Assembly (NCBI GenBank): GCA_963592135.1 | Contig: CAVAVP010000021.1 | Coordinates: 40,248 to 104,247 of the forward strand | Length of the DNA: 64,000 nucleotides | Direction: 5' to 3' | DNA from: a bacterium | Lineage (GTDB): Bacteria; Bacillota; Clostridia; Christensenellales; UBA3700 | Made by a program: the position numbers and the translations under genes | The notes under the pieces: model-generated | Told to the model about the DNA's origin: nothing | The model's input: the letters and a program-made list of their open reading frames with translations, nothing else | The model's database searches: none | Shown: positions 12,760 to 38,485 of the stretch, one piece after another | Numbering within the stretch: the stretch's first letter is position 1 | Layout of the letters: every line of letters begins with the position of its first letter

Positions 12760-13302
12760 TTATTTTGTTATTTTAATTTCTATATTATACACATAACCAT
12801 CTATTGTATGGGTATACTTTAATACAACACTTGTAACGTCCTTCGAACTATCCATCACCATAGAAATTGTAGCATTTGAAACTTCTCCACTAGAAACACT
12901 TAAATATTCTTTAGGGAAAGCAATTACAGCATTATATGTATTTGTTGATGTTACAATATCCTCTACAATTTTTGGATCACTAAAGTCTGATTCTGTATAT
13001 GTCAAACCACTTATCGTCCCTGAAAAAGTTGATGTTCCAAGTCCTAAATCATATGGATCGGTTTCTTTTCCGTTTGCATCTCTTGTATAAATAGTTTCTC
13101 CATCTTGAGATTTAACAGTAATTGCTACTTTACAATCTGAAAGATTTGCTGCTGCTGTAAAGAAGTCTGTTGCAGCAATACCTGAACCATTATTTGTTGT
13201 AGTACTATTTGGCTCAACAACATTATTATGACATGCAGAAAGAGCAACAATTAAAGAGATAACCAACACTAATATAACTAATAATAAATTTTTCTTTTTC
13301 AT
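12760..13302 (-). CDS. Small beta-rich lipoprotein, last gene of the giant-protein operon
   Basis: Signal peptide with lipobox LSAC. AGGAGG RBS sits in the 16-nt gap after the preceding gene's stop. I recognised no family. Confidence 0.7.
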   Translation of the reverse strand: MKKKNLLLVILVLVISLIVALSACHNNVVEPNSTTTNNGSGIAATDFFTAAANLSDCKVAITVKSQDGETIYTRDANGKETDPYDLGLGTSTFSGTISGLTYTESDFSDPKIVEDIVTSTNTYNAVIAFPKEYLSVSSGEVSNATISMVMDSSKDVTSVVLKYTHTIDGYVYNIEIKITK

Positions 13303-13318
13303 ATTTAATTACCTCCTA

Positions 13319-16300
13319 TTATTTAACCTTTTTATCTTTTTTCTTTTTTAATCCAACCATTAAGCCCGCTACTGCTAAACTTATTGCTGATGTAGAAGCT
13401 ACTTTAACCTTTAAAGATGTTTGTGCCGTTAAAGAAGCAACATCTCTTGCAGTTGTTACAGCGCTCTTTGCTGAATTTGTAAGTTTCTTATAATTATTCT
13501 TAACAGTTTCTAATTTAGAAGAATCTATTAATGATTTATCTTCACTACTTACATTTTCAATATTTGCAATGATAGTCTTGTATGTAGCTATGTCTTTAAA
13601 TCCAAAGCTGTTTGCAAGTCTGTTTAACTCTGAATTTACATTTGTTGGATCAAATGTTGTTGTAATAGCAATTGACATGACTTCAGACTCTAAATAGTTC
13701 TCTGATTCTAATACTTTTACATAAACTGTATAAGATTTCATTGCAGTCAAGTCTGAAATAGTATTACCCTCAGTTAAGTTTTCACCATCTAATCCAATAT
13801 TTAATGTATAACCTGCAAAATCTCCCTTAATAACAACTTTGTTATAGTGCAACTCTAAATCCGTTGCGTCTAATTTTGTTGTATCAAAAGCAGCCTTATT
13901 TACAGTAAATTGTAATGTGACATTGCTTTCAAACACTGCACTTCCTTCTGTTGCTGTTATATATACATAATAAGTTCCTGCGTTAACAACTTCTGTTAAT
14001 GAAATTGTTTCACCATATACAAACTCACTTGTACTATATACTGCCATTGACCATTCTGTTGTTGCAGCATTAGTATCTGGTTTAATTATGTCTATTAAAT
14101 TTTCTCCAGTATACGTTGTACTATTTGTTGCTAATGTCATATATTGAAGATCCTTAATAGTAATTTCTAGATTACCATTTTGCTCTACAGTTAAATTATA
14201 GTTGGCTGCATCTTCTCCTTCAAGTGTCATAACTACAACATTTGAATATGAACCAACTACAGCTGAACTATCTAATGATGGTGCTGTGTAAACATAAGTT
14301 AAATTAGCATCTGTTGCAAATTCTAATGAACCTGTTGAATAACTAAATCCTAAACCCGAGTTTGGAACAATTTGCGTATCACCAAATCCCATTGTCATAT
14401 TTTCAACAATTATAGATACATTTCTTTGTGTAATGACAAATGTTAAATCAGCATCTACATTTGCTGCGTATATGTAATTTTCATTATCTACGCCAGTTAC
14501 TCTTGCTGTATAAGTTCCAACATTAATTGGCAATAAATCATTTGTTTCATTATATAAAATTACAGCATTAACTTCATCACTATTTACAATTCCTTCAAAT
14601 ACTACTATGGCTTTCTTTTCTCTACCGCTATAAACCAAGTTTTCTGCAGCAACTATAGAAGATAAAGTTAAAGCCTTTGCTGTAACAATTACATTTCCTT
14701 CAATAGAAATTACATAATTATCTTTACTTGTTCCCGCACTCTCTGCCGTAACAGAATATGTTCCAACACTTGCTGTTGTAGCAGAAGCCTCTGTAGATAT
14801 CGTTGGATAAACATCATCTTCACCATAAATTGTATAACCGGCTTTAATAGTATAAGTTATTGTTGATGTATCTAATTCAGTTCCGTAGATTTTCTCATAA
14901 TCTGAAACAACAAATACAAGCTCTCTTGTTGAAACTACAAACTTGTTAGTTCCGTTTTCAACAGCAATTGTATAATTATCCTTGTTAGCACCGGTTGTTA
15001 AACCTACTATATCATATAATCCTGCATTAGCACTTGCTGCAATACCATCGGATGTTAATGCAATTTCCGCATCGTCTTTAGCAATAATCTCTCCTGACAC
15101 TACGCTAAAGTTTAATTTACCAACATATTCTTCTCCATAAACTTTTTGAGGTTCATTTGTAACATTTATAGTTATAACCATTGGCTTTACTTCAAATGCA
15201 ACATATGGATATCCATCGTTAGTCTTTGTTAAAGATGCATCGTTTGCATAGATAATTTCATAGTTATCTTTATTAATGTTGTTATTTACTACTGCTAAAT
15301 ATTCGCCTCTTTCAATAATAGAATCAACTTGCTCATATTTATCTTCACCAACCATCTTATAGCTTTCGCCTTCATAGTTATTATTTTTTACATAATATGT
15401 ATATGAAACACCATAATGTCTATTCGTAATATCTGTCTTTGTTAATCCAGATACTGAAGCAAAATCTACTAGATTTCCTATAACATTTTTACCAGTATAT
15501 GTTGTTGAAGTATCTAAACCTTCTGAATTAACAGTAATTGTTGCTGTCAACTTCTCAACATTATATACCATGTAATAAGATACTTCCGCATAGTTGGAAT
15601 ATGCTATTTGATTAAATGTAATTAATACTACATATAATCCCGTCTTTGAGGTAATAGCTGACGATGTAGCTTCACTTGAAACAGTATATACATCACCTTC
15701 TTTTGTTGCTGGATAATAAGCAAATGTACAATATATTTGTTCAAACGTTCCATCTTCTTCAGTTACACCTTTTAATACACAAGCAAGTGAATTATAACCA
15801 TTATAAATTTCACTTTCATAATATCCTTGTTGAGTTTCACCCTTAAAATCTATTGAAACACTTGGATACAACGATGTTAAATTATAATAAGGTTCATACT
15901 TAGTTCCACGTTCACTTTCAGTAAATGAACCTGATGCATATTCTCTTACTAGTATTGTACCTGCTTTATGTATAGTAACAATTCTTGTAATTTTAGTAAC
16001 AACTCCATCTGTTTCTGTCGTATTTACTACTTCACTGATATTTTCTCCTTCTTCGCTTGTATAGTTAGAAGATTCTACACTTGGAAGTAAGTAGTTTTTA
16101 GAAGAGGAACCTGAAGCTAGTGAAATATAAACATAATAATTACCTACAGATTCATAATCGTTACTTGAATCATAAGTAACACTTACAGCTGTTGGCTCAA
16201 ATACATCATATACAACAATATTAGCATTAATCATTGTTGTACTGTCATTAAACTTTGAATGAACAGTAGCTGATGAATCGCTTGTTGTAGCAACTATCCA

Positions 16301-19081
16301 TGTAGCTTGTTGCTCTTGCTTATTATATTGATATTCATCCATGTTTCTAAATAGAACGGATATTGTTCTTGGAGAAACTTCAATAGTCCACTCTGTTTGA
16401 ATAGCATCACTAATCTTATAGTTTTTATTAGACAATGTTTTTTCAACTACTATTTTATATGTTCCAGCATTCCAAATATTAGATGTTAAAACTTCATTTT
16501 TCTTATAATATTCATTAAGTGTTGGGAACGCTGCATCTGTTGTGTAACCAATAGATGAATATGTTCCATCTTCATTCTTTTGATAATACTCTACATTATT
16601 TAAAAGTCTATTTGCCGCAACCTTTGAATATGTTATTGTATAATAATTATTAACTATATAACCTACATCACCACCAATCAAACCAGATTTATATGTATAA
16701 GCAAAGTTTATATTTTTTCCACAATAAACAAAATCTTGAGGAGTTGTATAACTTTCACCATCTACATTATTTGTTAAAGTAGTCCAATCAGCCGTTACTT
16801 CTTTTTGATTAACTGTATATGTATATAAAGGTTGCCATTTTGTAGCTGTTCCTTTGTATTCTTCCTTATAGTAAGGATTATCTAATCTATATGCAACTAA
16901 ATGTAAATCTTCACTTAAGAAGTCAAATTTTGAATTTGCATCACCATTATATATTGCAAGTTCATAGTCTCCTGCTTCCTTTATATGATCACCGCCATAT
17001 GCAGCAAAGTTTCCAGCATCATATACTGTCCAAATAGAAGTATCTGTAAGCAACGTATTAGAGCCGTTTTTACTTATTTCGCTCTTATTTCCAGTATAAT
17101 TCAAACTAACCTTTGATGAACCATTATATGTTTTTAATATAACTGATGGCGGAGTAATACCACTTGTTGCATCATAAGTTTTAGAACCAAAATCAAATGT
17201 CGAAGTAGTTCCAAAACCGCTTTCATTAAATTCATAATATGTAGCTCTACCAAATGTTACTTTTGCTGTTAAACTTAAATCTGTCGCAGAACCCCTTGAA
17301 ATAGCAGTTTCTGGTGCATAAATCTTAAAATTATTTATTGCGTATTCTACATTTTTAGCTTCATTGTATAAACTCTTATTTACTTCAGTGAATCCAGTTC
17401 CCGTTATAGACATAGACCAAACAAAATAACCAGAATCTATTGTATAGTTTGAAAGTTTTGTTGAATCTCCAAAAATCAAAATATTTGCTTTTTTTGTACT
17501 ATTAGCCCAAACCAAATTAAATGCTTCTTGAGTAGAATCTCCAACTTTCTCAAAAGAACTTGAAGACTCACTATATATATATCTATCTATAAAGTTTGCA
17601 CCTGCTGCACCTTGCACACCATTTATTAACAATCCTGAATAACTAGCAGATCCATCAGAAAATGGATTACCGTCATTTTTTCCTTGAATTGGAGAAGTCA
17701 AATTAGTTGGCGAGTTTGCGGCGCATTGTGTTTCCAAATCTGACTTGCTTACAGTCATATAAACATTTGAGAAAGAACCCGTTGATGAAACTCCTGCTAA
17801 AATTCCACCATATATATATTGTCCATCAGAGATTCCACTATATTTGCTTTTATACGAAGAACCTATTTCAACGCAAGCGCAACCTGACCACGATGAAATA
17901 ACACCATCAATAGTTCCAGCCGTACATCCACTTGTTTGACTATGAGGAGCATACAAGTCGTTATCCTGCGTACAATTAGTTCCAACAATAATTCCAGAAA
18001 AACCTAATCTATCGTTGCCAGAATCATAACTTGGAGCTTGAACATCTGAAATTATATATCCAGAACCTGCGGCTGAAATATTATACATCTCAGCATTATT
18101 ACACAATGTTCCTGCAAAACCTCCTATAAATGTACGTGGAGATAGTCTTTTAAGGAGCCCACTTTTTACACCTTGAGCTACTCCTCTTATATATGATTTA
18201 CTTTCCATTGTTACTTTTGAATTTGAAAGTACAGTCGTTGTATTATAACCATCCCAAACTCCAGAATATCCACCAATGATTAAGGTGCCAAGTCCATCAT
18301 CATCATGTCCAGTTTTACTACTTTGGTAGCAAAACTCAATATAAGAGTTACTTGCAAAAGTTAGTGAGCAATTATCTATTGCAGCACCATAGGCATAGCC
18401 AAAAACTACTCCTAACGAAACTGGTCTATCTAGTTGGTTTCCCCCACCATTTGAATTAAAATCAGCCTTCCAATTACCTGAAAACTTAAAATTCGTATTT
18501 TTAACTTCACAATTATAGCCATACGAACCAAGAAATCCTGCTGAAAAGAATCCTGTATTACCATTTTGATTTTTACCAAATGGAGTATTATTAGAATCAT
18601 AATGAGGAAAATAACTCATATCCATAAAGAAATTACTTCCTTGTTTAAACACATCTTTTCCTTTTTCAGTATTTGTTGAACAATTATAGGTAATTGTATA
18701 TCCACAACCATCTAAATAAGCATATTTAAAAACAGAAGCTGTAAAGTTTGCACCCGAATATGTAATATCATTAGTAAGGTATCCATATATTTTATTATCT
18801 GCTGTCGTAGAACTATCATTAGCTGTGTTTACGAACGCTGTTAGTTCTTCTGAGCTTGAAATTTTATGAGCACCCGCTATAGATGCATATGGAGAAATAT
18901 ATCCACTTTCTACAACTCCATTAAACCCTGCATTTAAATCTGTCGTATCTGCTGATGCTTCATTGATACTTATAACACCATCTTCTTGATTAAATACAAC
19001 ACATAAAGAGGCAACAAGTGTCATTACAACAACCAAACTAATTAATGTTATTATTAGATATTTTTTATTAATATTTGTCAT
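13319..19081 (-). CDS. Giant (1920 aa) surface protein: signal peptide, GLUG-motif beta-helix head, long Ig/MBG-like repeat stalk, C-terminal TM plus Lys-rich tail
   Basis: Uninterrupted 5.8-kb ORF. GLUG-like strings include IGGFAGT, GGYSGV and IYGGILAGV...NVYM. MBG(YGX)-like modules include KVYGEEY...AGLYDIVGL...NYTIAVENG...V and EKIYGTEL...VGTYSVTAE...NYVISIEGNVIVTAK. It ends AISLAVAGLMVGLKKKKDKKVK and has no LPXTG. Confidence 0.85.
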   Translation of the reverse strand: MTNINKKYLIITLISLVVVMTLVASLCVVFNQEDGVISINEASADTTDLNAGFNGVVESGYISPYASIAGAHKISSSEELTAFVNTANDSSTTADNKIYGYLTNDITYSGANFTASVFKYAYLDGCGYTITYNCSTNTEKGKDVFKQGSNFFMDMSYFPHYDSNNTPFGKNQNGNTGFFSAGFLGSYGYNCEVKNTNFKFSGNWKADFNSNGGGNQLDRPVSLGVVFGYAYGAAIDNCSLTFASNSYIEFCYQSSKTGHDDDGLGTLIIGGYSGVWDGYNTTTVLSNSKVTMESKSYIRGVAQGVKSGLLKRLSPRTFIGGFAGTLCNNAEMYNISAAGSGYIISDVQAPSYDSGNDRLGFSGIIVGTNCTQDNDLYAPHSQTSGCTAGTIDGVISSWSGCACVEIGSSYKSKYSGISDGQYIYGGILAGVSSTGSFSNVYMTVSKSDLETQCAANSPTNLTSPIQGKNDGNPFSDGSASYSGLLINGVQGAAGANFIDRYIYSESSSSFEKVGDSTQEAFNLVWANSTKKANILIFGDSTKLSNYTIDSGYFVWSMSITGTGFTEVNKSLYNEAKNVEYAINNFKIYAPETAISRGSATDLSLTAKVTFGRATYYEFNESGFGTTSTFDFGSKTYDATSGITPPSVILKTYNGSSKVSLNYTGNKSEISKNGSNTLLTDTSIWTVYDAGNFAAYGGDHIKEAGDYELAIYNGDANSKFDFLSEDLHLVAYRLDNPYYKEEYKGTATKWQPLYTYTVNQKEVTADWTTLTNNVDGESYTTPQDFVYCGKNINFAYTYKSGLIGGDVGYIVNNYYTITYSKVAANRLLNNVEYYQKNEDGTYSSIGYTTDAAFPTLNEYYKKNEVLTSNIWNAGTYKIVVEKTLSNKNYKISDAIQTEWTIEVSPRTISVLFRNMDEYQYNKQEQQATWIVATTSDSSATVHSKFNDSTTMINANIVVYDVFEPTAVSVTYDSSNDYESVGNYYVYISLASGSSSKNYLLPSVESSNYTSEEGENISEVVNTTETDGVVTKITRIVTIHKAGTILVREYASGSFTESERGTKYEPYYNLTSLYPSVSIDFKGETQQGYYESEIYNGYNSLACVLKGVTEEDGTFEQIYCTFAYYPATKEGDVYTVSSEATSSAITSKTGLYVVLITFNQIAYSNYAEVSYYMVYNVEKLTATITVNSEGLDTSTTYTGKNVIGNLVDFASVSGLTKTDITNRHYGVSYTYYVKNNNYEGESYKMVGEDKYEQVDSIIERGEYLAVVNNNINKDNYEIIYANDASLTKTNDGYPYVAFEVKPMVITINVTNEPQKVYGEEYVGKLNFSVVSGEIIAKDDAEIALTSDGIAASANAGLYDIVGLTTGANKDNYTIAVENGTNKFVVSTRELVFVVSDYEKIYGTELDTSTITYTIKAGYTIYGEDDVYPTISTEASATTASVGTYSVTAESAGTSKDNYVISIEGNVIVTAKALTLSSIVAAENLVYSGREKKAIVVFEGIVNSDEVNAVILYNETNDLLPINVGTYTARVTGVDNENYIYAANVDADLTFVITQRNVSIIVENMTMGFGDTQIVPNSGLGFSYSTGSLEFATDANLTYVYTAPSLDSSAVVGSYSNVVVMTLEGEDAANYNLTVEQNGNLEITIKDLQYMTLATNSTTYTGENLIDIIKPDTNAATTEWSMAVYSTSEFVYGETISLTEVVNAGTYYVYITATEGSAVFESNVTLQFTVNKAAFDTTKLDATDLELHYNKVVIKGDFAGYTLNIGLDGENLTEGNTISDLTAMKSYTVYVKVLESENYLESEVMSIAITTTFDPTNVNSELNRLANSFGFKDIATYKTIIANIENVSSEDKSLIDSSKLETVKNNYKKLTNSAKSAVTTARDVASLTAQTSLKVKVASTSAISLAVAGLMVGLKKKKDKKVK

Positions 19082-19095
19082 TTTTATTACCTCCT

Positions 19096-25000: not shown

Positions 25001-25170
25001 GAGCCATATAAATACCCATCAACAACGTCAAAGTCAGTAAACAATACTGTATCTGCGTTGACAGAATTATTAGCTGCATTTTGCGTAGTTTGTGTAAGAG
25101 CACAAATTAGTGCAATTATACAAACTACAGCCATTAAACTTATAATTATAGATTTATTAGTTTTACTCAT
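19096..25170 (-). CDS. Giant (about 2024 aa) surface protein, paralogous architecture: signal peptide, GLUG-motif head, repeat stalk, C-terminal TM plus poly-Lys/Ala tail
   Basis: Uninterrupted 6.1-kb ORF. ATG 25170 lies 1 nt after the upstream stop, with GGAGGA in the upstream gene's last codons. GLUG-like strings include GYAGMITGVNQGIIANCNF and AVAGGLAGG...IVNCSL. The C-terminus is IILIAAAAGGIVVVIVGIAVGVSVSKKKKKAKAKVKSKAKAKAKKK. Confidence 0.85.
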   Translation of the reverse strand: MSKTNKSIIISLMAVVCIIALICALTQTTQNAANNSVNADTVLFTDFDVVDGYLYGSDNKIISSDEGGKYTLGSDGKYHLNYDYISTKYDSSYSIVKITTGAELLSFIDSCSVTTANKNVGFVANDIDYNMQTLYSNSRSGKWLNNGTFYGILDGNGYTINMTSPVGGSEFYLNDGYSGVVGELSSNTTYYAKLGNRSYYGYGYAGMITGVNQGIIANCNFVWNSNLNVYSELSTSKGTLVYYGSKDWGIKIQTMVVGLVCGLLYNGTIENCTIDIQEDFAIDHKDEQNNNGGYAAPGMCHNSGIVGGVVGFVGPNGLLTRTTLINEGGILCLSDGSMDTSATKKALAVAGGLAGGIKPADDTAKIVNCSLKGSGVVRANIAHDTGSSRNENGGYGFAGGAVGATMIISGVDAYSTEAVNAGQIDGIISAWTGSSARFRFNSLSEAVSTEKSIAGGLFDNIGSSPEVKNIVILYDYIGLVQSQSNDNGKTYTTLDTCGDNTTGSILYGSWTEIYKTTTYGSLRVSYDYSKTEDPIRVEAVAEGFFDGDNYTGTGSIDDEITTTYINFNLSDTKTGLGKFIWSLQYASNERGVVDGTLVIASDQVGAQIFKLSGNRKGAVIYTFGEKVEASFLDTNTIVNTNNFITNNAKYYNGTAVNAPKLVLTRNTGEEVVLNSDAYIMTTKLTLLDENQEETAYTYNIKDQADTYIPGLYTYSIKINVTERDGATSTDFIYYDDTACVLAEYDSNFIYEYAIYQGTSSMFTATNLSSSENWVSSDTITISYLNKAGAMQYYTYKKGNGTESIYNPVDESAINVTYTVSESGKFTYNFNAYIENPLYEEGSSAPEYLKIGTTSAQCFVDNAAPIIKSVKYFEYDESAVDHKGLQLSTSDLSEWLTTDVLITYEVNDNSMSGIVSGSGHTDYTLVTSSKWSCSLKLDGKNSSQTVYYTDNAGNTVEKTFSVRIDTTKTALTNVFALNYSEYLVYYATMEYCPVSVKINFIPVFGASGAYLQYSYEQDENNEDIWVNYEKEIKSNQANTFVLDFEIKNATFKMRLVSTEGIYATSYANGDGYVTNGAENYEESIRWTINVVIAYMSITLDNIYYGDKALSSMSGDELSSLFSKNYDAKDVADVSLVVKVYEDGTNDELNSTTTILYSDKYSFSSPDILTEYTKVTAIYSSANAGSRQISISVEGIDAYEGKYLFFFTDGREFTDFTVLLQESKVYDQITTTISPSTINVVMANYVDQLKSSYVYGTEIPKTIRVDGEAGDVVTLKVVSDAQCTYENGKIVAYPNVGTYTVSADFIKDEGNYILNVTSSEIVISPKSVSVLTTLDGVKGYSPTLTYDGVSHKIDGTYTDVFGETQNATIKYYLDEECTNLISEDVINVINIYYVKLTIDDGNYSVSNSKNPITFSIVKGYLSLDLTAQTYEYSGYNIPFELKSTSGVEIKNDDSFDPAVDVCKIGNFTISYYLVVNNVPSSEKLESIYAVGKYLVQIEIAGNDYFYDQSYADTYIEITKAKTSMSIDDVTITYDGNPHTYNYTLGNVLVTGVNSKSTVVGVWDDITQYWTYNNGVINRSTDLTDILQIQVFDEVTRKYITVNELSPANFTDAGTYIFKVSFLGDNNFDASSKQVNLIVEEANMEGITFEDIYTYYEGANNYYSFVIDDSENSALKKYLDMGAELIYRYNGEEYKYGTEAYAGTYKTDASGKEVLDQKGYLQLFSEVNSYTVLAIVTLENHRTLQLSATLTIDKTKINGITPVEVNNVEYDGAFHPGQFKGFDLDENGNMKVSYLSGGESAKIIDKVWYKGVAVDVEYDDEAIPYTAGTHFGKITFTSTEYATETIQVKVVISQKKVTDIDFSFLSSRINKINSSTDLSNLYAEYDKNGDTDYVSFEYYDVNGEKVELDEDGCLPAGDYTIKMIFADANFYSDVTATITIAQASKDGSTTTTSDGEESSGDGGGIVDLIKNNIILIAAAAGGIVVVIVGIAVGVSVSKKKKKAKAKVKSKAKAKAKKKSSNDGKATF

Positions 25171-25171
25171 A

Positions 25172-31100: not shown

Positions 31101-34100
31101 TCAAACTCATCAGCAACAACATTTGATGTAGTTGTTCCTTCAAGTCCTAAAAGTTTAGATAAATCAAAGGATAAATCTAATATTTCTTTATCACCTAGCA
31201 AGCCATAGATTAAACTTGTATAGTCTAAATCCATAGCTAAGTTTGGTAATACAATGTTTAATAGTTTTAGATTTTCAAGTTCAATATAGACATGATTTCC
31301 TACACCATAAATACCTAGTATTGTTGTGTTAGCTGGAACCATTTCATTTGCTCCAAATGCAATTGAAGAATCATTTGTTACAAGTTCTACAACTAAAATA
31401 CTATTTTCACTATTTTCTTTATCTAAAGACAAACCAATATTTAATGAAACATCTAATTTAAAATCATTTGTAAATTCCCATAATAATTGCATTTCTTTAA
31501 TCTCGTCAAGACCAAATAAGGCGATAAGTGGAGCAAGGTTATAAGCACCTTGAGAGAATTCCACACTTAAGTTTAGAGAAACTAATGTTCCACCTAGTAT
31601 ATCTACTAATAATTTTGACACACTATCTACGTAATCTTTTTCTTCAACAATGTAATAATCTGTCTCTGGATTATATGCAACTTGTCCCTCACCTGTTCCC
31701 AAAGCTACTAGAGTGTATTCTTTAGTAGTATTATTATATACATAATATTCTCCACTCGAAGATGAAGTTAATCCTGTTGCTAAAACTCTTCTATGCGTCT
31801 TAGATAGAATATACCCCTCCAGATTTGTTTTTGCACCAAAGTAACCGCTGTATGAAGTTCCACCTAAATCCGGATTAAACTTCTTTAATCCTTCAGTTGT
31901 ATAACAAATCATAATGTCATGAATAGATATAGCAGCTTCTAATCCATCTGTTGCAATAGTAGTTGTAATATATTCGCCTTCGTCTAAGCCATAGCCTACT
32001 ACCCAATAATCCTTATATACATAAGCTCTTACATACTTCTTACCAGTTGGATCAACATCTAAAGATTTAACATTAGTGCTAATTGCGCCGCCGTAAAATG
32101 CACATTCTGAGCCATTTTCGTCTTTTCCTAAAACAACCTCTTTAGTAAAATCAGAATCGATATAGAACTTTCCTTCATTTACATAAACTTGGCTATAGTT
32201 ATCTATTACATCATCTCCAACAAGAGTAAACTCAGTTGTAAGCGCTGAATCTGAATAGTATGTAGAACCACTTACAAATACTAAGCTCTTATAAGCAGCC
32301 TTAGTTCCTATATACCAATAATCATCAGCACCAATATATGCTGAACGAGAATCAAGGCCTGCAGCAATTGTTATAGAATCAATATGACCTTCTTCTTGGA
32401 AGTTAATGCTTAAACCAGCGGTTAAGCCTTTTGGCCAACTGAATCCTAAATCACCAGCAAGTGATGTTAAAGCTTTCCAGAATATATCATTAAGTGTTAT
32501 TTCTATTGCTGTTTCTGTATCATTAGCAGAGAAAATATCTCCAAATCCAACAACTGAACCAATACCTTTTAGAAGTGTAATAAAGTCTGTGGATACATGG
32601 TAATTACCATCTTCATCATAAACTAGAGATATACAATCCATATTTGTAATTTCACTTGATGCAGAAATAGTTCCACCCTCAAGAGTTGACTCATCATTTG
32701 ATGTATATCTAGCGTTTAGTATATCTTCCCATTTTGTCCAATCTGAAATTCCTAGAGTTTCACTAAATACATTATCCAATGCATTTGTAACTAAATTTAC
32801 CACATATTGAACAAGCGATGGAACACCATCAAGGTTAACTTTAATATTGCTACAAGCAAAATAATTGCTTAAAACGCCATTGCCGTCACCATCTGTTAAA
32901 TTAACATAAAGTGCTCCATTCTTATAATAAACGGCTATCATTGGATAAGAATCTAGACAATTACCATTTACATCAATAAGATATAATTCAAGCATTATAA
33001 GGTTATTATCTACAAGTACCTCTTTCCCGTTTTCGTCAATAATCGTATCCTTACCATAATTCAAATCTAAATCTAGTGCTGCTTCTAATCTAAATCCTGT
33101 AGCACCATCTACTAAAATTACCCCTTCAGGTAGTAATGTTTTACCTAGTACACTGTTTGCAACAGAACCAACGTCTAATGCTCCTTGTGTATCTAATGTT
33201 ATATCTAAAGAAAATGCAATGTTTGTTAAGCTAAATGAAGTATAATTTATGCAATTATACGCTCTTTGTGAAATACCAATATCGGCTTTTGTATTTTGAT
33301 AAATTGTGTCAGAATTCAAATCTACATAAAGCAAATATACAGGATTCTCCGTTGTAGATTTTGTTTTATCCTTTGCAGTAAAGGCAAATCTAGTTGTTAC
33401 GCCATCAACTGTTGTACCTTCAACTTGTACAGTCATACTTGGAAGCCATCCATCAATAAATGTTAATAGTGGATCCAAGTCTAAATCGAAACTTAACGAC
33501 CCTCCTATAAGTGCAGGAAGCATTCCAACAATACTCTTTAGTGTCGTTGTTAACGCATTGATTTTAACTTCCATCGCATAGGTTGATGTTACCACACCAG
33601 TTGTAGTATCTGTAGAGGTTTTAACAACAGCATTACCAAAAATAAAGGGAACTACAAGTCCAATTATACTTGATACAGACAAATTAACACCTGCACTAGA
33701 AATTAAATCATCTAGCATTTTAAATAAATCACCTTTTAATTGGCCATCATAATTTCCATCTGAAATAAAGTTCTTAAGAGCAGAAACCAATTGAATCATA
33801 TAATCCATGTTAAAGTCTTCAAAATATACAAGAGGAGAATCTTCTCCTTTATCTAAATACATTTTCTCACCTATAACATAGAATCCCCATTGAAGCTCTC
33901 CTTCTTCTTCTTTTGTTATTTGTGTAGCCATATCAGCAGTTGTTAATGCTAAATGGCCTATTACTTCTCCATTTTGATTAACTAAATCGCCTGAGTTTTC
34001 AGTATTATCTCCAGCACCTTCTGTAGTATCTTCAGTACCATCTGGATCAATAGGACCTACTGGGGTTTCTTTGACATTAGACATATCAACGACCTTTATT

Positions 34101-34558
34101 ACAAGTTCGTTGTCCAACCCGTCTTGATCTTGGTCTAAATTGGCTCTAAATATAAATCTCTTTTTTGAAGTTTGTTGAGTATCTTTATCTGTTACGTCTA
34201 AATCCGCATAGAAATTTAAAACTTTATAGTTTCCTTCTTCCGCATTAACCTTCGAGCCACCAATCAACGTAGCCATACAAACAAGTGGTTTCATTACTGA
34301 AGTTTGAACTCCAGTTTCTTGCCCCTTATTATTTTCATCAGTTTTAGTAGGCTTTGTTGGACGTTTAGTAGGCGTAGTTGTGGTAGTTGTTGGTTTCGTA
34401 GTTGTGGTAGTTGTAGTATCATCTCCACCTGTATCGGTAGTATCTGTAGTAGTTGTACTTCCTCCACCGGTTACATTACAACCAACGAACACTGCAACTA
34501 GCGAAACTAATAACAGTATCACGATAATTGTACTTAAAATAACATTGCTTTTTTTCAT
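25172..34558 (-). CDS. Giant (about 3128 aa) lipoprotein: lipobox, Thr/Pro-rich stalk, about 2000-aa unassigned beta-rich core, C-terminal array of Big_4-like Ig repeats
   Basis: Uninterrupted 9.4-kb ORF. I prefer ATG 34558, which has GGAG 8 nt upstream; the tracked start is 34579. The signal peptide ends FVGC. A TTTTDTTDTGGDDTTTTTTTKPTTTTTTPTKRPTKPTK linker follows. C-terminal repeats carry LP..V.V.Y.(D/N)G...W(D/E) signatures. There is no C-terminal TM. Confidence 0.85.
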   Translation of the reverse strand: MKKSNVILSTIIVILLLVSLVAVFVGCNVTGGGSTTTTDTTDTGGDDTTTTTTTKPTTTTTTPTKRPTKPTKTDENNKGQETGVQTSVMKPLVCMATLIGGSKVNAEEGNYKVLNFYADLDVTDKDTQQTSKKRFIFRANLDQDQDGLDNELVIKVVDMSNVKETPVGPIDPDGTEDTTEGAGDNTENSGDLVNQNGEVIGHLALTTADMATQITKEEEGELQWGFYVIGEKMYLDKGEDSPLVYFEDFNMDYMIQLVSALKNFISDGNYDGQLKGDLFKMLDDLISSAGVNLSVSSIIGLVVPFIFGNAVVKTSTDTTTGVVTSTYAMEVKINALTTTLKSIVGMLPALIGGSLSFDLDLDPLLTFIDGWLPSMTVQVEGTTVDGVTTRFAFTAKDKTKSTTENPVYLLYVDLNSDTIYQNTKADIGISQRAYNCINYTSFSLTNIAFSLDITLDTQGALDVGSVANSVLGKTLLPEGVILVDGATGFRLEAALDLDLNYGKDTIIDENGKEVLVDNNLIMLELYLIDVNGNCLDSYPMIAVYYKNGALYVNLTDGDGNGVLSNYFACSNIKVNLDGVPSLVQYVVNLVTNALDNVFSETLGISDWTKWEDILNARYTSNDESTLEGGTISASSEITNMDCISLVYDEDGNYHVSTDFITLLKGIGSVVGFGDIFSANDTETAIEITLNDIFWKALTSLAGDLGFSWPKGLTAGLSINFQEEGHIDSITIAAGLDSRSAYIGADDYWYIGTKAAYKSLVFVSGSTYYSDSALTTEFTLVGDDVIDNYSQVYVNEGKFYIDSDFTKEVVLGKDENGSECAFYGGAISTNVKSLDVDPTGKKYVRAYVYKDYWVVGYGLDEGEYITTTIATDGLEAAISIHDIMICYTTEGLKKFNPDLGGTSYSGYFGAKTNLEGYILSKTHRRVLATGLTSSSSGEYYVYNNTTKEYTLVALGTGEGQVAYNPETDYYIVEEKDYVDSVSKLLVDILGGTLVSLNLSVEFSQGAYNLAPLIALFGLDEIKEMQLLWEFTNDFKLDVSLNIGLSLDKENSENSILVVELVTNDSSIAFGANEMVPANTTILGIYGVGNHVYIELENLKLLNIVLPNLAMDLDYTSLIYGLLGDKEILDLSFDLSKLLGLEGTTTSNVVADEFDSMVDISNALAILVNEDIVAISASIVAVQELLGVFNVNLGMDLAEVFDLTVELVASRSKGLDLTVSGALIPKWTEETGNYFDDDLKINIQTGTKKAPVQIGSATTLKSKYETKTEKLAAETTKYHDDLIDAIIQTIGDMKLTLTLDAEVLNSIWDINKIVDNIVAEQASSFNIPIEVDFDDWKTQVQIIAQLHLNLDNFKQTQIKIEVIYEGNVWLGVYIYNNSVVLDLNGLGLFDVELVNVPAIAKLGTALQSILDGVGDLSLTSIVGGLLENLIGGDTSNSDEVSSSTEVTTQPQENAGNTDVSTSDGDVSTSDGDVSGSDEDVSISDNLIAVILSSLSIKDTTIFASVAADVFESLFRELLGYSLGLDLGIDLNVDILAGKLALNAEIENSIWADVEIELEAGGDASFDIDLDQIPDWNATKGEYLIKSILKNLELGLYIDLNQYTSTTGSPEYTRIYIEKLDSKRSLSNTDGKSAAKGSILVTIADIDETEFNNTGAGSKTPLVYVELDYTKGKMNLTICNNLIKYVVDVGSKVGTVSIDLDLVSMLSGTLDGVLDSINNLVSGLIKDTNEDLGVEDTTTQPDTSTSTESTEEEDTIITSGSVSATQVVSTAGWTGVTSKASTYEVGQLFYKTNGTSSNYNDDEIQMYNGSGFTALSINTSYTSPKNFPTASVSNLNNVYRIEKTTTDESGNSTTTYKFYICKISRHEGTKDYYDYYDLNVVSGISALFSNLDITSLIDLVKIYLSVDQTTKLGIMNLDVEIDPYNFNSLIDNLMYYIFGQETILNLAELAEGTFSSNYLAKVYWNRIDGGATFDDLMDQVPSILADVLKNLAGVSLSSGLISMLVTSNLENQIGNIINRFIPFAVTNESHLGLNLVRGQLTNIYLTNQDHGQAVTDDNGNVLTFYNTESTKTYSAGRSSSYFTNVYIFNTSNAVGDSTYTGVDGAITWDQIPATVTYDPYLYTNAENAYNTMVGENFTNKEATYQKGQNIYKASVSFKITGFQAFDISTGKYSDTITSMNKDLSFANLDSYTNPGIYYITATAPFNSGANTATMTIKLKIRSSASIEKIETLSMHVYESLPEYIMVYTTDGVERRLPVSSMSIYTKSNGVADSGIITDYAYCNADSKDGGWEQTVYIKFANGVEAPFTIKYLDSTIVDTVISGASDNKITIDLYNFDSTTSINDYTPSTLYFKYSDGTYGFLDATWDYGNATELFDRFTTHDISAAQYDIKATVMSGTNNEQTVTIVFDVPSKKVSSVVFGEKNNTLDIQPYEYYLYLTDPVNNEAYNPYQTKVTVNYDEGENAYQGDVNVVWSGVDSNIDYKWNNNNDYSSIAKVSLDELAYASGDTFKWTQDVKVSVSRNEISAIYFDKELTKQTFTINPYEYNNLADKHDYYPSSAYVKFTNNKVLELPIAWDWIEVDAFNVDYMNDYTQFTITIGFDVAKYNEDGIVTGLLVNGSNPFYQTSIVNVEVDGTAITGLMLLGSDYMGGVYQIDPVKVNFLGNKALPSSVTVVYENGTIGTMDVAKWEYNFKVTMSAQNNLVATCWLTNNLSFNVNVEILDRSVDQIIVDTSSITSSPIDPYSYTLMDNGTLTYDIFESQMDISWITSYIVKLVGVEDNKVYYSQSVNTLNEASALKQELRKSSEYNYNTETKIYEVDGVQCKLVVENETTTYNLPVYWDLAVLNISPEGGEETIYYYIGYGEEYQIQLSVDVEFATKTVDYISAVDSYYQTYNAATDSFSDTSYYEVLYNGEGLTAAQKRQGKVKSRLLVYFTDGTSEYVDCEIDLTTLNDGKGSKYGYQAGIIHETKFEYTLDESVEASTRGVFYVKGEYDSIVLRGNGKNDTTKTYYAFNEAKDLTSASTGSYYFRLDGKFYPVTLTGTNYSDTLTYYTREIAVVDENTTGTFYTLDETSYQKITKYGAGAKFDVNTDYYRLTVSNQLYANVTIGIGSGTLEQTSSIMVFVTGRVED
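30122..30193 (-). repeat. In-frame 21-bp tandem repeat (about 3.5 copies) encoding DVS(T/G)SD(G/E)
   Basis: Plus-strand units are GAAACATCTCCGTCTGACGTA (30144-30164), GAAACATCTCCATCTGATGTA (30165-30185), the partial GAAACATC, and a diverged copy upstream. The protein reads DVSTSDGDVSTSDGDVSGSDEDVSISD. Confidence 0.8.
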
Positions 34559-34652
34559 AAATTTCTCCACTTTGCGCATTCATAGAAATTTTTATTTTGT
34601 ACACGTATATTATATTAGGGCTCTTAATCAAAACTTAAATAATCTTAGCTAT

Positions 34653-34806
34653 TGTAAAATCTCTCAAAAGAAACTCTCAAACGTTCCCATTTTTCTAGTT
34701 TTTTTATGTAAATTTTTTTTGATTTTTTTATTTTTCGTTATTAATTTTTTCACAAAGATTGATTTTTTGTAAAATTTTTGTAAAATTTAATAAATTTATG
34801 TATAAG
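34653..34806. promoter_or_regulatory. Control region of the giant operon with phased TGTAAAAT repeats (candidate response-regulator boxes)
   Basis: TGTAAAAT occurs at 34653, 34768 and 34779. The last two are perfect TTTTTGTAAAAT units 11 bp apart. Related TGTAAATT is at 34707 and TGTATAAG at 34799. All lie in the 284-bp gap between the kinase stop and the giant gene's preferred start (34558). Confidence 0.3.
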
Positions 34807-34842: not shown

Positions 34843-36138
34843 TTAAAACTCTCTTTCTTTTGGAAACTCAAGCACTACTTTTAATCCTTTAGAACTGTTA
34901 GTTTCCGCATACACTCTACCTTTTAGAGCTATCATAATTGCCTTCACAATAGAAAGGCCAAGACCTGAACCCCCTGTTTCGCTATTTCGAGAATAGTCAG
35001 TCCTATAGAATCTTTCAAAAATGTTTTGAAGTTCACTCTCTGCAACGCCATTTCCGCTGTCTGCAACAATAATTTCATATTTTAGTTTTGTACTTTTTAA
35101 AGTGACTTCGATTTTATCTTTTCTATCAGTATATTTTACAGCATTATCTAAAAGAATAATTATTGCCTGCTTTATTTTATCTTCATCAGTATAACTTCTA
35201 ACACCTTTTTGTACATGCGATATCATCTCTTTTTCATCAAGTTCACACATCATTTGAAAAGGCTCAATTGCATCTAAAACTATAGATGAAATGTCACATT
35301 CTTTCTTTTGCAAAATAAGCCTATCCGAGTCTGCCTTAGAAAGTGTCAACATATCCTTTACCATTCGACTTAATCGACCCGTTTCATGGGTAATTGCAAC
35401 CAACTTATCCGACACATCTTCAATTTGTTTTTCAGGCTCCGACATAATGTTTGAAACTCCGGACTTTATAATAGCAAGTGGCGTATTAAACTCATGTGAA
35501 ATATCTGAAATAAGTCTACTATTTCTATTAATTGCATCTTCATAGTTTGCCGATTGTTTTCCAACCCAAAAATAAGAGAATGTAAACAAAATTGCAAATG
35601 CAACAATAAATATACCGATAGACGTCCACATTACCGCCAAAAAGGCCTTATATTCCTCAGTTACATCCAAAAATACTACATACAAGAAACACCCACCAGA
35701 ATTACCGGCCATCCAATCGTCTTCATTATTTTCATTATAGGCTATCCTGTATCTTTCCTTTCCTATAGTGGTTTTATTCCCAAGTTTTACACAATCTACA
35801 TAACTGCTCGGAAAATCATCTTTGTTAACACTTTTTGGAATATCATACGAAACCAAGTTGCCTTCTTTATCAAAATAGAAAACCGCACAATCCGAATAGA
35901 TATCCGTAAGATTAGTTCTCTTTATTCCTGGAGTGTCTAAAAAGGCACAATTTTTTACAGCGGTTGCAATAACCTCAATTTGTTCTTTTGATTGATCCTC
36001 AATTGTGCTATATGATAAAAAACATGAAATCACAATGACAAATAAAATTAACAAGCCCGGAATTAGTATACTAACTCCAAGCAAATTTTTAGCTCTTTTT
36101 TCAGTCTCTGCTTTTGTATAAATATCCTTAATCTTCAT
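34843..36138 (-). CDS. Sensor histidine kinase (two TM helices, extracytoplasmic loop, HisKA + HATPase_c)
   Basis: H-box SHEFNTPL, N-box LLDNAVKYT, G-boxes DSGNG and GGSGLGLSIV. It overlaps the response-regulator stop by 11 nt. Confidence 0.9.
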   Translation of the reverse strand: MKIKDIYTKAETEKRAKNLLGVSILIPGLLILFVIVISCFLSYSTIEDQSKEQIEVIATAVKNCAFLDTPGIKRTNLTDIYSDCAVFYFDKEGNLVSYDIPKSVNKDDFPSSYVDCVKLGNKTTIGKERYRIAYNENNEDDWMAGNSGGCFLYVVFLDVTEEYKAFLAVMWTSIGIFIVAFAILFTFSYFWVGKQSANYEDAINRNSRLISDISHEFNTPLAIIKSGVSNIMSEPEKQIEDVSDKLVAITHETGRLSRMVKDMLTLSKADSDRLILQKKECDISSIVLDAIEPFQMMCELDEKEMISHVQKGVRSYTDEDKIKQAIIILLDNAVKYTDRKDKIEVTLKSTKLKYEIIVADSGNGVAESELQNIFERFYRTDYSRNSETGGSGLGLSIVKAIMIALKGRVYAETNSSKGLKVVLEFPKEREF

Positions 36139-36808
36139 CTACGTTCTTATCGTCCCACATATACCCGATATTTTTTATTGTCTTTAGGTAATGTTTTACT
36201 CCATGTTGCTCTAAAACTTTTCTAATATTGCTTACATATACCTCAGTAACTGTAACTATGGTATCCGAGTTATATCCCCACACTCTATTAAACAATTGCT
36301 CTTTAGATATAATCATATTTCTATTTCTTATTAGGTATTCGACTATATCGTACATTTTGCCTGCAAGTTTTACATACTCCCCGTTAATTTTAAGCATTTT
36401 ACCAACATAATCAAGTTCTAAGTTATCTTTTACGTATTTTGTAGAGAAGTTATTGTTATATCTTCTCATAACAGCCTCTGCCCTCGCTAAAAGTTCATCA
36501 TTTTCAAAAGGTTTTGCTATATAATCATCAGCACCAAGTTTTAATCCTTCTATCTTTTTATCTGTACTATCTATAGCCGTTAAAATAATAACAGGAGAAG
36601 TATTAGTTTTTCTTAATCTAGATAAAAACTCAAAACCATTTAATTTAGGAAGCATTAAATCTAAAATTATTAAATCATAACTTCCATGCTCAGCAAGATA
36701 TAACCCCTCTTCTCCATCAAGAGCACTATCGCTATCTCCAAGTTTGCTTAAAACATCTCTTATTGATTGATTTAATGTTGCGTTATCCTCAACTACTAGA
36801 AACTTCAT
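36128..36808 (-). CDS. OmpR/PhoB-family response regulator
   Basis: Receiver domain (FLVVEDN, ILDLMLP, KPF) plus a winged-helix trans_reg_C domain (VYVSNIRKV...IKNIGYMW). ATG 36808 is preceded by AAGGAGA. Confidence 0.9.
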   Translation of the reverse strand: MKFLVVEDNATLNQSIRDVLSKLGDSDSALDGEEGLYLAEHGSYDLIILDLMLPKLNGFEFLSRLRKTNTSPVIILTAIDSTDKKIEGLKLGADDYIAKPFENDELLARAEAVMRRYNNNFSTKYVKDNLELDYVGKMLKINGEYVKLAGKMYDIVEYLIRNRNMIISKEQLFNRVWGYNSDTIVTVTEVYVSNIRKVLEQHGVKHYLKTIKNIGYMWDDKNVDED

Positions 36809-37535
36809 TTTCGTTCTCCTTCTCATTTATTTTACTTTCACTGCTTTTATTATTTAGATTAACAAATCCTTTCTCGACTAGCAATTGCTTACTATCTATT
36901 AGATAAATATGTTCTCTATCGGAATCACATACCACATATAGTTTACCCTCAAACTCCTCTATATGGGTAGTAAAATTACACTTTTTACATTTACCTATTG
37001 AATTAATTTCGTACAATTTTTTATTTGTATAAAGCGTAGGTGGATCTCCATATTTTATTTTCTTTATAGCAAGATTTGTTTTCATCATTTTAAATAAAAC
37101 AATGACATAATTCAATTCTGATATAAATAATGCAACATACACAGTACACCTTATAAACAAAACAAAAATCGCAATTAGTTTTATATTCTTGTTAATATCG
37201 AAATCACCCAATATTTTCATAATAACAACCATAAAAAATGTAACTACGATTTCCGCTATAATTTTAAAAATACTTAATCTTTTGCTTTTATTTGCATCAG
37301 CAATCTCACTAATCGCAATATTCTCTAAACTCCAATGCTCGACATTTTCAACATCTTTTGACTGTAAAGCTGCTTTTGACATAAGATATTGTTTTTCTCT
37401 TTCCCTTTCTTGCGATCTACCACTTAATCTTTCAAAAAAGGATAGCTTTTTTTTGCCTTGAAGTTCTGTTCCACAATGTGGACAAAAAACATCGCTATCG
37501 CTAACTTCCCTTCCACAATTGTTACAAATTTTCAT
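36789..37535 (-). CDS. Zinc-ribbon membrane protein (N-terminal CxxC...CxxC, 2-3 TM helices, C-terminal second Cys cluster)
   Basis: CNNCGREVSDSDVFCPHCG at the N-terminus, hydrophobic helices in the middle, and CKKCNFTTHIEEFEGKLYVVC near the C-terminus. It overlaps both neighbouring genes. Confidence 0.6.
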   Translation of the reverse strand: MKICNNCGREVSDSDVFCPHCGTELQGKKKLSFFERLSGRSQEREREKQYLMSKAALQSKDVENVEHWSLENIAISEIADANKSKRLSIFKIIAEIVVTFFMVVIMKILGDFDINKNIKLIAIFVLFIRCTVYVALFISELNYVIVLFKMMKTNLAIKKIKYGDPPTLYTNKKLYEINSIGKCKKCNFTTHIEEFEGKLYVVCDSDREHIYLIDSKQLLVEKGFVNLNNKSSESKINEKENENEVSSS

Positions 37536-38247
37536 TTTTTACCCTCTTATTTTTGTTAATAATCATATTTGCAACACAACCCCCTAAAGCTATAGCAGCA
37601 AACAATCCTATTAACCAAATCCCCCAGCCAGTCGTTACACTAACACCTATTGCAGACGATTTTATATATACTACAATTATCGATATAAAAATAACCGCAA
37701 CAACTAGCGCAAATATTCCGCTACTTATAAGAAGCGATAGAAAATTTTTCTTCCCTTTCTTTCTACTAATTACGCCACAAACTATTATGTCTATGTAACT
37801 TAACACCATACAAATCGTAGTTATATACGCAAAGATACCTAATACATTAATAGCTTGCTTTGTACTTTCAGAAACATAAGCCCCTTCATCAATAATTTTT
37901 TCTATTTTTTCCCAAGATTCACTAGATGTAGCACTTACTCCTATTTTTTCAAGAGAAAATCTATATCCTGAATTAATTCCTCTTAATGGAGCAATTAAAA
38001 TGTCTAAAACTGATATTGTAAAGTTTGAATATTCTCCATTTTCTTGGACCTCTTCCAAATCTAGTTTTACAGAAACACTATATAACGAAGACAATATTAG
38101 TAGAAAAAATAAAACCACAAGTACAAAAACAAGAGCTATGTTAAAAATCGAGTTGAAATCTTTTATTTCACCTTTTTTTTGTGCAACATTTTTGTTATTT
38201 GCATTATTTTCTCTATTTATATTTTTCTTTTTACTTCTACTTGACAT
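37522..38247 (-). CDS. Polytopic membrane protein of unknown function, first gene of the TCS operon
   Basis: Basic N-terminus (SSRSKKKNINRENNANNKN), one TM, a loop of about 90 aa, then 3-4 TM helices. ATG 38247 is preceded by GAGGAA. Confidence 0.55.
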   Translation of the reverse strand: MSSRSKKKNINRENNANNKNVAQKKGEIKDFNSIFNIALVFVLVVLFFLLILSSLYSVSVKLDLEEVQENGEYSNFTISVLDILIAPLRGINSGYRFSLEKIGVSATSSESWEKIEKIIDEGAYVSESTKQAINVLGIFAYITTICMVLSYIDIIVCGVISRKKGKKNFLSLLISSGIFALVVAVIFISIIVVYIKSSAIGVSVTTGWGIWLIGLFAAIALGGCVANMIINKNKRVKNENL

Positions 38248-38485
38248 ATTTCCTCGTCTTTGAATTATACAATATTTAAAAATTATTAACAATTATATAA
38301 AATCAATTACATTTTTGTAAGATTTTTTTAAAATCATGATGATACACGCTAAGATAAAAAACAGACCATCGTGTTAATGAGTTTTTAATAATTCTCTTTG
38401 GCCTCGTTCTGGTTTTAATGTTAAGAGACTTTTGCATCTTTAATTTCCACTTGTTGCATTTTTAAAATTATAACGTTGCAAATTG

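Follow-up and report, generated by a model that had tools for sequence, protein, structure and literature searches.

A conserved, unannotated operon of giant predicted surface proteins with a CiaR-type promoter in uncultured gut Clostridia

The DNA analysed here is a stretch of 64,000 nucleotides (positions 40,248 to 104,247 of contig CAVAVP010000021.1, assembly GCA_963592135.1, assigned to the Christensenellales; the whole stretch is called the window below) with ~30% guanine plus cytosine (GC) and a GC skew that is consistently negative over most of its length. About one third of it is taken up by an operon of ~22 kb in which four tightly coupled minus-strand open reading frames (ORFs), encoding three giant proteins (G1, G2 and G3, in the order of transcription) and a small lipoprotein, lie between a terminator and a four-gene regulatory operon (Table 1). 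ORF calls and NCBI records agree on this arrangement, which a preliminary description made from the letters alone had proposed; the record forms are 3128, 2024, 1920 and 180 aa, and the sole name in any source is 'hypothetical protein'. The shorter form of G1 starts at an ATG preceded by a GGAG ribosome-binding site. Direct reading of the junctions bore out the coupling as well: G1 ends in GTG GAG GAC TAA, followed after 1 nt by the ATG of G2, with a GGAGGA within the final G1 codons, and the 14-nt and 16-nt spacings at the G2/G3 and G3/lipoprotein junctions each come with an AGGAGG. The terminator, also foreseen, was the only site found in a terminator scan in which 0.2 were expected.

Upstream on the same strand, the genes for a polytopic membrane protein, a zinc-ribbon membrane protein, an OmpR-family response regulator and a sensor histidine kinase overlap their neighbours by 11-38 nt, as had been noted before. 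Between the kinase gene and G1 there is a 263-nt gap with its own promoter, and the operon of the two-component system (TCS) is thus transcribed as a unit apart from the giant operon. Whole-protein Pfam and NCBIfam scans returned nothing for the giants, and chunked Pfam scans only MBG_2, Big_4 and a sub-threshold GLUG match. These scans detected no sortase, secretion-ATPase, glycosyltransferase or enzyme domain in the four operon products, and the whole-protein and chunked Pfam scans no SLH, CWB2 or other wall-binding domain and no DUF5776 or SH3b-like C-terminal domain; nor is there an LPXTG-like motif near the C-terminus of any giant. These results agree with the earlier view of the giants as putative surface proteins devoid of enzyme domains. 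The 180-aa protein, which has no Pfam or NCBIfam match, carries a signal sequence ending in a predicted lipobox (...VALSAC).

Table 1. Positions of the features of the giant operon and its regulatory neighbours in the window.
Feature	Position	Strand	Description
Intrinsic terminator of the giant operon	12696-12745	-	13-bp stem at 12706-12737, 6-nt loop, T-run
Small lipoprotein (last operon gene)	12760-13302	-	180 aa, ORF calling
G3	13319-19081	-	1920 aa, ORF calling
G3 stalk segment	14474-15049	-	MBG (YGX-type) domains, PF18676 MBG_2
G3 head domain	17723-18895	-	aa ~63-453, predicted right-handed beta-helix, paralogous to G2 head
G2	19096-25170	-	2024 aa from ATG at 25170; 19096-25197 gives 2033 aa from TTG
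G1	25172-34558	-	3128 aa from ATG at 34558; 25172-34579 gives 3135 aa
G1 C-terminal ~1000 aa	25175-28282	-	putative Ig-like region, Big_4 match and recurrent sequence pattern
G1 module copy 3	30218-30808	-	aa 1258-1454, iterated module HMM, independent E-value 2e-40
G1 module copy 2	31088-31699	-	aa 961-1164, iterated module HMM, independent E-value 8e-47
G1 module copy 1	32690-33322	-	aa 420-630, iterated module HMM, independent E-value 1e-27
Giant-operon promoter	34607-34639	-	TTTAAG-N5-ATTAAG-N10-TAATAT, regulator box in place of -35, plus -10
Sensor histidine kinase	34843-36138	-	HisKA and HATPase_c, 2 transmembrane segments, ~115-aa extracytoplasmic loop
OmpR-family response regulator	36128-36826	-	CiaR-like recognition helix VTEVYVSNIRKVL
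Zinc-ribbon protein	36789-37535	-	2 transmembrane segments, co-operonic with the TCS
Polytopic membrane protein (first regulatory-operon gene)	37522-38292	-	~4 transmembrane segments, probable ATG start 38247

G1 is built from a predicted lipobox (AVFVGC), a Thr/Pro linker, three ~200-aa modules, acidic linkers and a C-terminal immunoglobulin (Ig)-like (Big_4) region, and is probably an elongated, modular surface protein with an N-terminal lipid anchor. BLASTP self-comparison of the giants gave no internal repeats; the G1 modules emerged by iteration of hidden Markov models (HMMs), which gave an alignment of 111 copies, and copies 2 and 3 match each other's HMMs at 1e-6 and 2.5e-11 (residue positions of the modules are in the numbering of the 3135-aa form). 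In the C-terminal ~1000 aa, the chunked Pfam scan placed Big_4 (PF07532) at aa ~2670-2695 with 27.8 bits against a cut-off of 22.1, and a recurrent 'PxxVxVxYxDG...W' pattern suggests that this whole region may be an array of Ig-like domains.

The G1 family is small. A word-indexed search of 5.8 billion clusters returned 5 relatives, a profile of G1 aa 440-1440, searched exhaustively against 1.84 billion representatives, collected 57 proteins, all of 1.2-7.1 thousand aa, and a close relative occurs in only 6 of 185,579 GTDB species representatives. Among full-length members, 44 of 47 have a predicted lipobox within their first 70 aa (a signal peptide ending in [LVIF][ASTVI][GAS]C), and members carry 3-13 tandem module copies, with 11-12 in P0025 and P0026 and 13 in P0035 (7116 aa). 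All 10 family clusters that were checked for names are unnamed in every source, and Big_4, present in P0025 and P0041, was the sole Pfam domain found in 6 distant members. The module itself has no Pfam match, a 14-member module profile found no relative in the PDB, and PDB sequence and profile searches with G1, G2, G3 and the module profile gave only chance-level matches (E>0.1; isocitrate dehydrogenase, TSST-1). Judged by sequence, the G1 family is thus an undescribed one, defined by a new ~200-aa repeat module, and homology to an already characterised adhesin operon, which the preliminary description had named as the finding that would speak against it, did not surface: no source gave a name, and G1 had no significant match in the PDB or, for its modules, in Pfam.

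G2 and G3, neither of which has any sequence relationship to G1, are paralogous to each other in their first ~480 aa (24% identity, E=5e-12, BLASTP). Both start with a predicted signal peptide (VNA/D in G2, ASA/D in G3, the stroke marking the cleavage site) and continue into a predicted beta-helix head and a stalk, Ig-like in G2 and Ig/MBG in G3; G2 finishes with a clear transmembrane (TM) segment and a long Lys-rich tail ending ...DGKATF, and G3 with a hydrophobic stretch followed by KKKKDKKVK. Orthologs keep both the C-terminal hydrophobic segment with its Lys/Arg-rich tail and, 35-45 residues from the N-terminus, an AXA site (ASA/D, VNA/D, ANA/A and others), and because these sites are conserved the N-terminal signals are more likely cleaved than anchoring. 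The opposite anchoring put forward in the preliminary description is therefore upheld for the lipobox of G1 and for the C-terminal TM segment and Lys-rich tail of G2, and weakened where it allowed for anchoring N-terminal signals. By sequence pattern, with a signal peptide and an anchor as fibrillar adhesins should have, G2 and G3 are predicted to be exported and surface-attached, the anchor being a membrane helix in place of a sortase signal.

An AlphaFold2 (AF2) model of G3 aa 44-1000 was confident only in the head (model residues 20-330, with block means of the predicted local distance difference test (pLDDT) mostly 66-91), was made up entirely of short beta-strands, and had low confidence in the stalk. 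The top three Foldseek matches of this model in the PDB were IgA1 proteases, from Gemella and from pneumococcus (7uvk, 6xjb and 6xja; probability 0.84-0.94, with weak E-values of 0.03-0.04 and TM-scores of 0.15-0.16 normalised on the 957-aa query), and among the other, far weaker matches were more beta-helix proteins, namely a carrageenase, phage depolymerases, a pectin methylesterase and the binding region of a Lactobacillus reuteri serine-rich repeat protein (SRRP). The 'GLUG-type' label of the preliminary description found weak backing in Pfam, as GLUG (PF07581) scored 17.6 bits at the head of G3 and 15.6 at that of G2 against a cut-off of 20.5; a GLUG-type beta-helix is a reasonable reading of the two heads and not an established membership. 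By analogy with the beta-helices of SRRPs and IgA1 proteases, the head is plausibly a binding domain. In chunked Pfam scans, the G3 stalk matched MBG_2 (PF18676) in three stretches (29.7 bits against a cut-off of 25, E=1e-6) and the G2 stalk gave only sub-threshold Big_13 and MBG_3 matches. G3 has 9 homologs in the 5.8 billion clusters, all unnamed. With their predicted beta-helix heads and, in G3, MBG domains in the stalk, G2 and G3 are fibrillar adhesin-like proteins, ordinary in kind.

To see which parts of the locus travel together, we compared the window with related loci (L001-L017), the closest of which come from metagenome-assembled genomes (MAGs) labelled Christensenella sp., Clostridiales or Clostridia. 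In the low-GC clade formed by the window and L001-L008 (GC 30-34%), the layout comprises divergent genes for a 566-aa protein and an S26 signal peptidase, then membrane protein(s), regulator, kinase, G1, G2 and G3; all three giants are present in L001, L002, L004-L006 and L008, and G1 in L003 and G3 in L007 are truncated at the edge of the contig. A second clade (L009-L011, GC 44-48%) has G1 (~2600 aa), G2 (~1900 aa) and G3 (~2150 aa) in the same order, with a regulator that is 56% identical in L009, and no kinase, membrane protein, 566-aa protein or signal peptidase gene within 10 kb. A seeming lack of G3 in L009 proved to be an artefact, as its reading frame continues beyond the locus.

The pairing of the first two giants extends further still. 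In L012 (GC 38%) a 4300-aa G1-type gene is followed after 22 nt by one for a 2384-aa MBG_2/MBG_3 giant, which again has a TM segment at the C-terminus and a short tail rich in Lys (KKKSIKL), and then by one for a 367-aa lipoprotein, while in L013 (GC 33%) a 3175-aa G1-type gene precedes that of a 2271-aa giant, and in L014-L017 (GC 53% in L014) a regulator gene and a gap of ~2 kb precede a 7108-7116-aa G1-type gene and then one for a giant of >4000 aa. In each of these loci, whose flanks are unrelated, a giant with a G2-type head begins 14-85 nt after the G1-type gene, and an HMM of the G2/G3 head matches the N-terminal part of the downstream giant at 7e-21 (L012), 1e-6 (L013) and 2e-4 (L015). 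The succession of a G1-type by a G2-type gene thus occurs in five lineages with GC contents of 30-53%.

The other components are less constant. G2 orthologs in L001-L010 are 24-86% identical, and identity of the regulator is 82-98% across L001-L008 and falls to 56% in L009 and to 43% in L014; for the kinase it is 45-95% across L001-L008, and L009 and L012-L017 have no kinase and also lack the zinc-ribbon and polytopic membrane proteins, the zinc-ribbon protein being conserved in the low-GC clade only (26-88% identity). L012 and L013 lack G3. Among the relatives, the 180-aa lipoprotein recurs in L003 only, at the same position and with 35% identity; it is absent after G3 in L011, and it has no detectable relationship to the 367-aa lipoprotein of L012. 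The co-conservation expected by the preliminary description therefore holds for the order G1-G2-G3 in two clades and for the G1-type/G2-type pair in three more lineages: the invariant core is a G1-type followed by a G2-type gene, often with a response regulator, and not the whole 25-kb set. Lineage-specific additions to this core are G3, the kinase, both membrane proteins and the small lipoprotein.

Several smaller features of these loci deserve mention. The G2 tails of the low-GC clade all end in D(K/R)A(Q/T)F-COOH (...KDKAQF, ...KDRAQF, ...KDRATF; DGKATF at 19099-19120, minus strand, in the window) and those of the high-GC clade in ...KAKGIV or ...KKAGIV, and the conserved D(K/R)A(Q/T)F end hints at a cytoplasmic binding partner or a sorting signal. 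Divergent from the regulatory operon, on the plus strand, lie the gene for the 566-aa protein (38483-40183), which looks cytoplasmic and has no Pfam match and no TM segment, and, overlapping it, that for S26 signal peptidase I (40174-40746), a pair that is 44-96% identical in L001-L008. We considered both as parts of the cassette and rejected them, as they occur only in the syntenic low-GC clade and are absent from L009 and L012-L017; it is conceivable that the peptidase is dedicated to the long G2/G3 signal peptides, and the adjacency may be plain synteny. Downstream of the operon, on the minus strand, 5838-9318 and 9854-12564 hold genes for a BspA-type LRR_5 protein (580 aa), a GH28-like protein (584 aa) and two FAD-dependent proteins (HI0933-like and FAD-depend_C). 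The FAD-dependent pair also follows G3 in L003 and in the high-GC L011, and the chromosomal neighbourhood is therefore old. In L009 (7753-9628), L014 (1726-4464) and L015-L017 an orphan regulator gene lies 1.2-2 kb away from the G1-type gene, with no called genes or long ORFs in between, and upstream of the cassette in L012 (4814-9387) there are genes for an extracytoplasmic function (ECF) sigma factor, a 770-aa RsgI-like anti-sigma factor and two small membrane proteins, one with a HELSH motif.

We then asked how the operon is controlled. When the region upstream of G1 was aligned across nine loci, an invariant direct repeat with a -10-like element after it stood out, and the rest had diverged; in the window the repeat reads TTTAAG-TTTTG-ATTAAG (34623-34639). 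Its TTAAG / TT(A/T)AG cores are invariant in the nine aligned loci and also occur in L012 and L013. The pattern TTAAG-N5-(T/A)TT(A/T)AG-N10-TAnnnT has a single match in the window (34607-34638, minus strand), where first-order Markov simulations of the window predict 0.05 per 64 kb, and the full pattern is likewise single in each of L001, L002, L004-L009 and L013. It lies 59-86 nt upstream of the G1-type start in 11 of 11 low- and mid-GC loci (window, L001, L002, L004-L009, L012, L013). L012 has two copies, one 5' of the G1-type gene and the other 69 nt upstream of the gene that comes after the G1/G2-type pair and encodes the 367-aa lipoprotein, where the promoter reads TTAAGGAATCTTTAAG-N10-TATTAT (30219-30250, plus strand).

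This arrangement is that of promoters activated by CiaR, which carry NTTAAG-N5-TTTAAG; regulation by CiaR depends on this repeat, and the promoter search model of that study gives it a spacing of 10 nt to the downstream -10 element (PMC3091779). The recognition helix of CiaR is VVEVYVSKVRKKL (PMC3091779), to which the helix of the window regulator is identical at 9 of 13 positions, a score shared by L001-L007 and L014; the helices of these regulators read VTEVYVSN(I/L)RKxL, and that of L009, VVEVYMSKLRKIL, is identical to CiaR at 10 of 13. No CiaR-specific model was among the 25 listed of 101 NCBIfam matches, all 25 of which fell below their cut-offs, and a search for an autoregulatory box upstream of the TCS operon found none. 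Between species the regulator keeps 82-90% identity (98% for the near-identical L004) as against 28-47% for the giants of the same loci, as one would expect where a conserved controller governs surface proteins that evolve fast. Control by the adjacent TCS, as supposed in the preliminary description, gains support from the conserved CiaR-type promoter and the CiaR-like helix, and the adjacent regulator most likely activates the giant operon directly from this box.

The intergenic region between the kinase gene and G1 contains in addition a tandem repeat, TTTTACAAAAA-TTTTACAAAAA (34763-34786, minus strand), ~205 nt upstream of the first in-frame G1 ATG (34579). Most other loci have TTTTGTAAAATTT, in inverted orientation relative to TTTTACAAAAA, ~150-165 nt upstream, with two copies 11 nt apart in L009. 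This repeat may serve as another site of regulation.

Gene structure and coupling, co-conservation, the architecture and conservation of the promoter and the domain content together lead us to read the locus as a regulated surface-fibril cassette, with a probability of about 0.6. In this proposal, the CiaRH-like kinase and its two membrane partners would sense an envelope or environmental cue, and the phosphorylated regulator would bind the TTTAAG-N5-ATTAAG repeat, which stands in for the -35 element and precedes TAATAT by 10 nt, and recruit RNA polymerase, thereby activating one long, translationally coupled transcript that runs from G1 through G2, G3 and the small lipoprotein to the terminator at 12.7 kb. 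G1 would be lipidated at its N-terminal Cys and reach outward as a rod of three modules and linkers with the ~1000 Ig-like residues at its end, and G2 and G3 would lose their signal peptides, be tethered with the opposite polarity through a hydrophobic helix at the C-terminus, its Lys-rich tail in the cytoplasm, and each display a beta-helix head of the GLUG type on top of a long, divergent Ig/MBG stalk. Together the giants would make up a layer of fibrils, adhesive or coat-like, by which the cell attaches to host glycans, to particles or to other cells. As two unrelated kinds of giant stay adjacent in the same order across divergent lineages, we infer a functional partnership, and since G1-type and G2-type proteins always occur together they would be partners in one adhesive or coat-forming layer. 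A more specific version, in which they are obligate, antiparallel partners in an undescribed heteromeric fibre or coat of uncultured gut Clostridia that is built on the new module and deployed by a CiaRH-like sensor, seems to us doubtful as it stands.

A number of observations weigh against the cassette reading. Adhesins like G2 and G3 commonly act alone, arrays of giant adhesin genes arise by duplication, and the proposed contact between G1-type and G2-type proteins is drawn from gene pairing. The housekeeping flanks of the low-GC clade are conserved too, and much of the co-conservation there is shared synteny; all sequences come from MAGs or metagenomes without a cultured host. Regulation is uneven across the lineages, as L012 and L013 keep the box and have no adjacent regulator, L009 and L014-L017 have the regulator without the kinase, and L014-L017 have no match to the strict box pattern; in L012 the ECF sigma/RsgI pair stands in place of the regulator and, with the box retained, suggests alternative or additional control. 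As for the proteins, the C-terminal hydrophobic stretch of G3 is short, the IgA1 protease matches are weak, GLUG stays below its cut-off, and an AF2 model of G1 aa 86-1285 from a 5-sequence alignment was unusable (pLDDT 36).

The main alternative is that the locus is an island of independent adhesins whose genes duplicated and gathered at one site, each with its own ligand, forming no assembly and sharing a regulator merely for convenience. The paralogous heads of G2 and G3 are what duplication predicts, Apilactobacillus kunkeei has five consecutive genes for giant surface proteins with N-terminal beta-solenoids (PMC12863079), G3 is dispensable in L012 and L013, and the giants evolve fast (28-47% identity) relative to the regulator, as is typical of adhesins under diversifying selection. 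Yet the G1-type and G2-type proteins are unrelated and nevertheless adjacent, ordered and closely spaced in five lineages with different flanks, and because duplication cannot yield a conserved heterologous pair we regard such an island as rather unlikely. A constitutive coat that maintains envelope integrity, in effect a scaffold or surface-layer (S-layer) substitute tuned by the CiaRH-like system upon cell-wall stress, would fit the CiaR-type promoter and recognition helix, given that CiaRH is an envelope-integrity system in streptococci (PMC3091779), the predicted membrane anchoring of the giants at both polarities, their non-repetitive sequences (no BLASTP self-matches), unlike typical variable-repeat adhesins, and the presence of S-layer domains (SbsC, Sap) among the weak Foldseek matches. 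These last have a Foldseek probability of at most 0.04, however, the Pfam scans found no SLH, CWB2 or other wall-binding domain, a beta-helix head on an MBG stalk is an adhesin architecture, and a family of 57 clusters is too rare for a general envelope component, all of which makes a scaffold improbable. That G1 is a bridge-like or carrier protein in the service of the envelope, for example with a beta-groove or a TULIP-like repeat for lipids or hydrophobic ligands, and that G2 and G3 are mere neighbours, derives from the impression that the modules of the family, in up to 13 tandem copies, alternate long amphipathic-looking strands and helices in a low-confidence DSSP trace; with no match to a lipid-transfer family in Pfam, NCBIfam or the PDB, a host labelled Clostridia or Christensenella that is presumably monoderm and so offers no second membrane to bridge, and a C-terminal third of G1 that is Ig-like (Big_4) as in surface proteins, this is very improbable.

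Whichever role the giants play, the locus is a conserved, unannotated surface apparatus of uncultured gut Clostridia, every product of which is 'hypothetical' in every database although it fills about a third of a 64-kb window. The new giant lipoprotein family has a repeat module that is now open to modelling and profile building, and the conserved two-partner cassette predicts a specific protein-protein relationship at the cell surface. A CiaR-type box outside streptococci that would drive a 22-kb operon is a testable regulatory link, and it provides a handle for finding the remaining regulon in MAGs. If the giants mediate attachment, whether the target is mucus of the host, particles or partner microbes, they would be prime candidates for the means by which these bacteria keep their niche.

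The G1 family with its module is new, and regulated giant surface proteins are of a known kind, so no new category of biology is involved; in the literature searched we found no counterpart of an obligate G1-type/G2-type cassette and nothing on combinations of GLUG, MBG, giant lipoproteins and Christensenellaceae. With the fibrillar adhesins of Gram-positive bacteria (Monzon et al., PMC8286594), G2 and G3 share a predicted signal peptide and C-terminal anchor and the lack of an enzyme domain and, as far as the models and profiles suggest, an N-terminal beta-helix and a long stalk, with MBG_2 domains in G3, but they differ in having a hydrophobic helix with a Lys-rich tail instead of LPXTG, stalk domains too diverged for an internal repeat to be detected by BLASTP, and a pairing with an unrelated giant lipoprotein. 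The Giant1-5 proteins of A. kunkeei are likewise encoded by consecutive genes and are extracellular proteins of 3-8 thousand aa with signal peptides, beta-solenoid heads and elongated repeat regions (PMC12863079). They differ in having neither TM nor lipid anchor and attaching by a C-terminal SH3b-like DUF5776, which was not found here, and their cluster has no lipoprotein partner and no reported dedicated TCS with a conserved box (PMC12863079). The locus does not fit serine-rich repeat proteins with an accessory Sec system, as the giants have 8-10% Ser and no serine-rich repeat tracts, and secA2, secY2 and glycosyltransferase genes were not found around the locus in the window.

The closest regulatory likeness is to streptococcal CiaRH, with the same direct repeat, the same 10-nt spacing to a -10 element, a replaced -35 element and a similar helix (PMC3091779), together with a window kinase that has two TM segments and an outer loop; by analogy in repeat, spacing and helix, the TCS-promoter pair may work like CiaRH. 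The differences are that the host is a Clostridia MAG, that the window TCS is co-operonic with two extra membrane proteins, and that the known CiaR regulon (htrA, small RNAs known as csRNAs, and others) contains no giant surface proteins. A TCS that governs very large surface proteins is known from Staphylococcus aureus, where ArlRS-MgrA is reported to act on Ebh, SraP and SasG and to alter adhesion and clumping (PMC6548404). That control is indirect through MgrA, repressive and directed at scattered targets (PMC6548404), whereas the window has the regulator gene next to the operon and a box that overlaps the promoter of the operon itself, an arrangement that points to direct activation.

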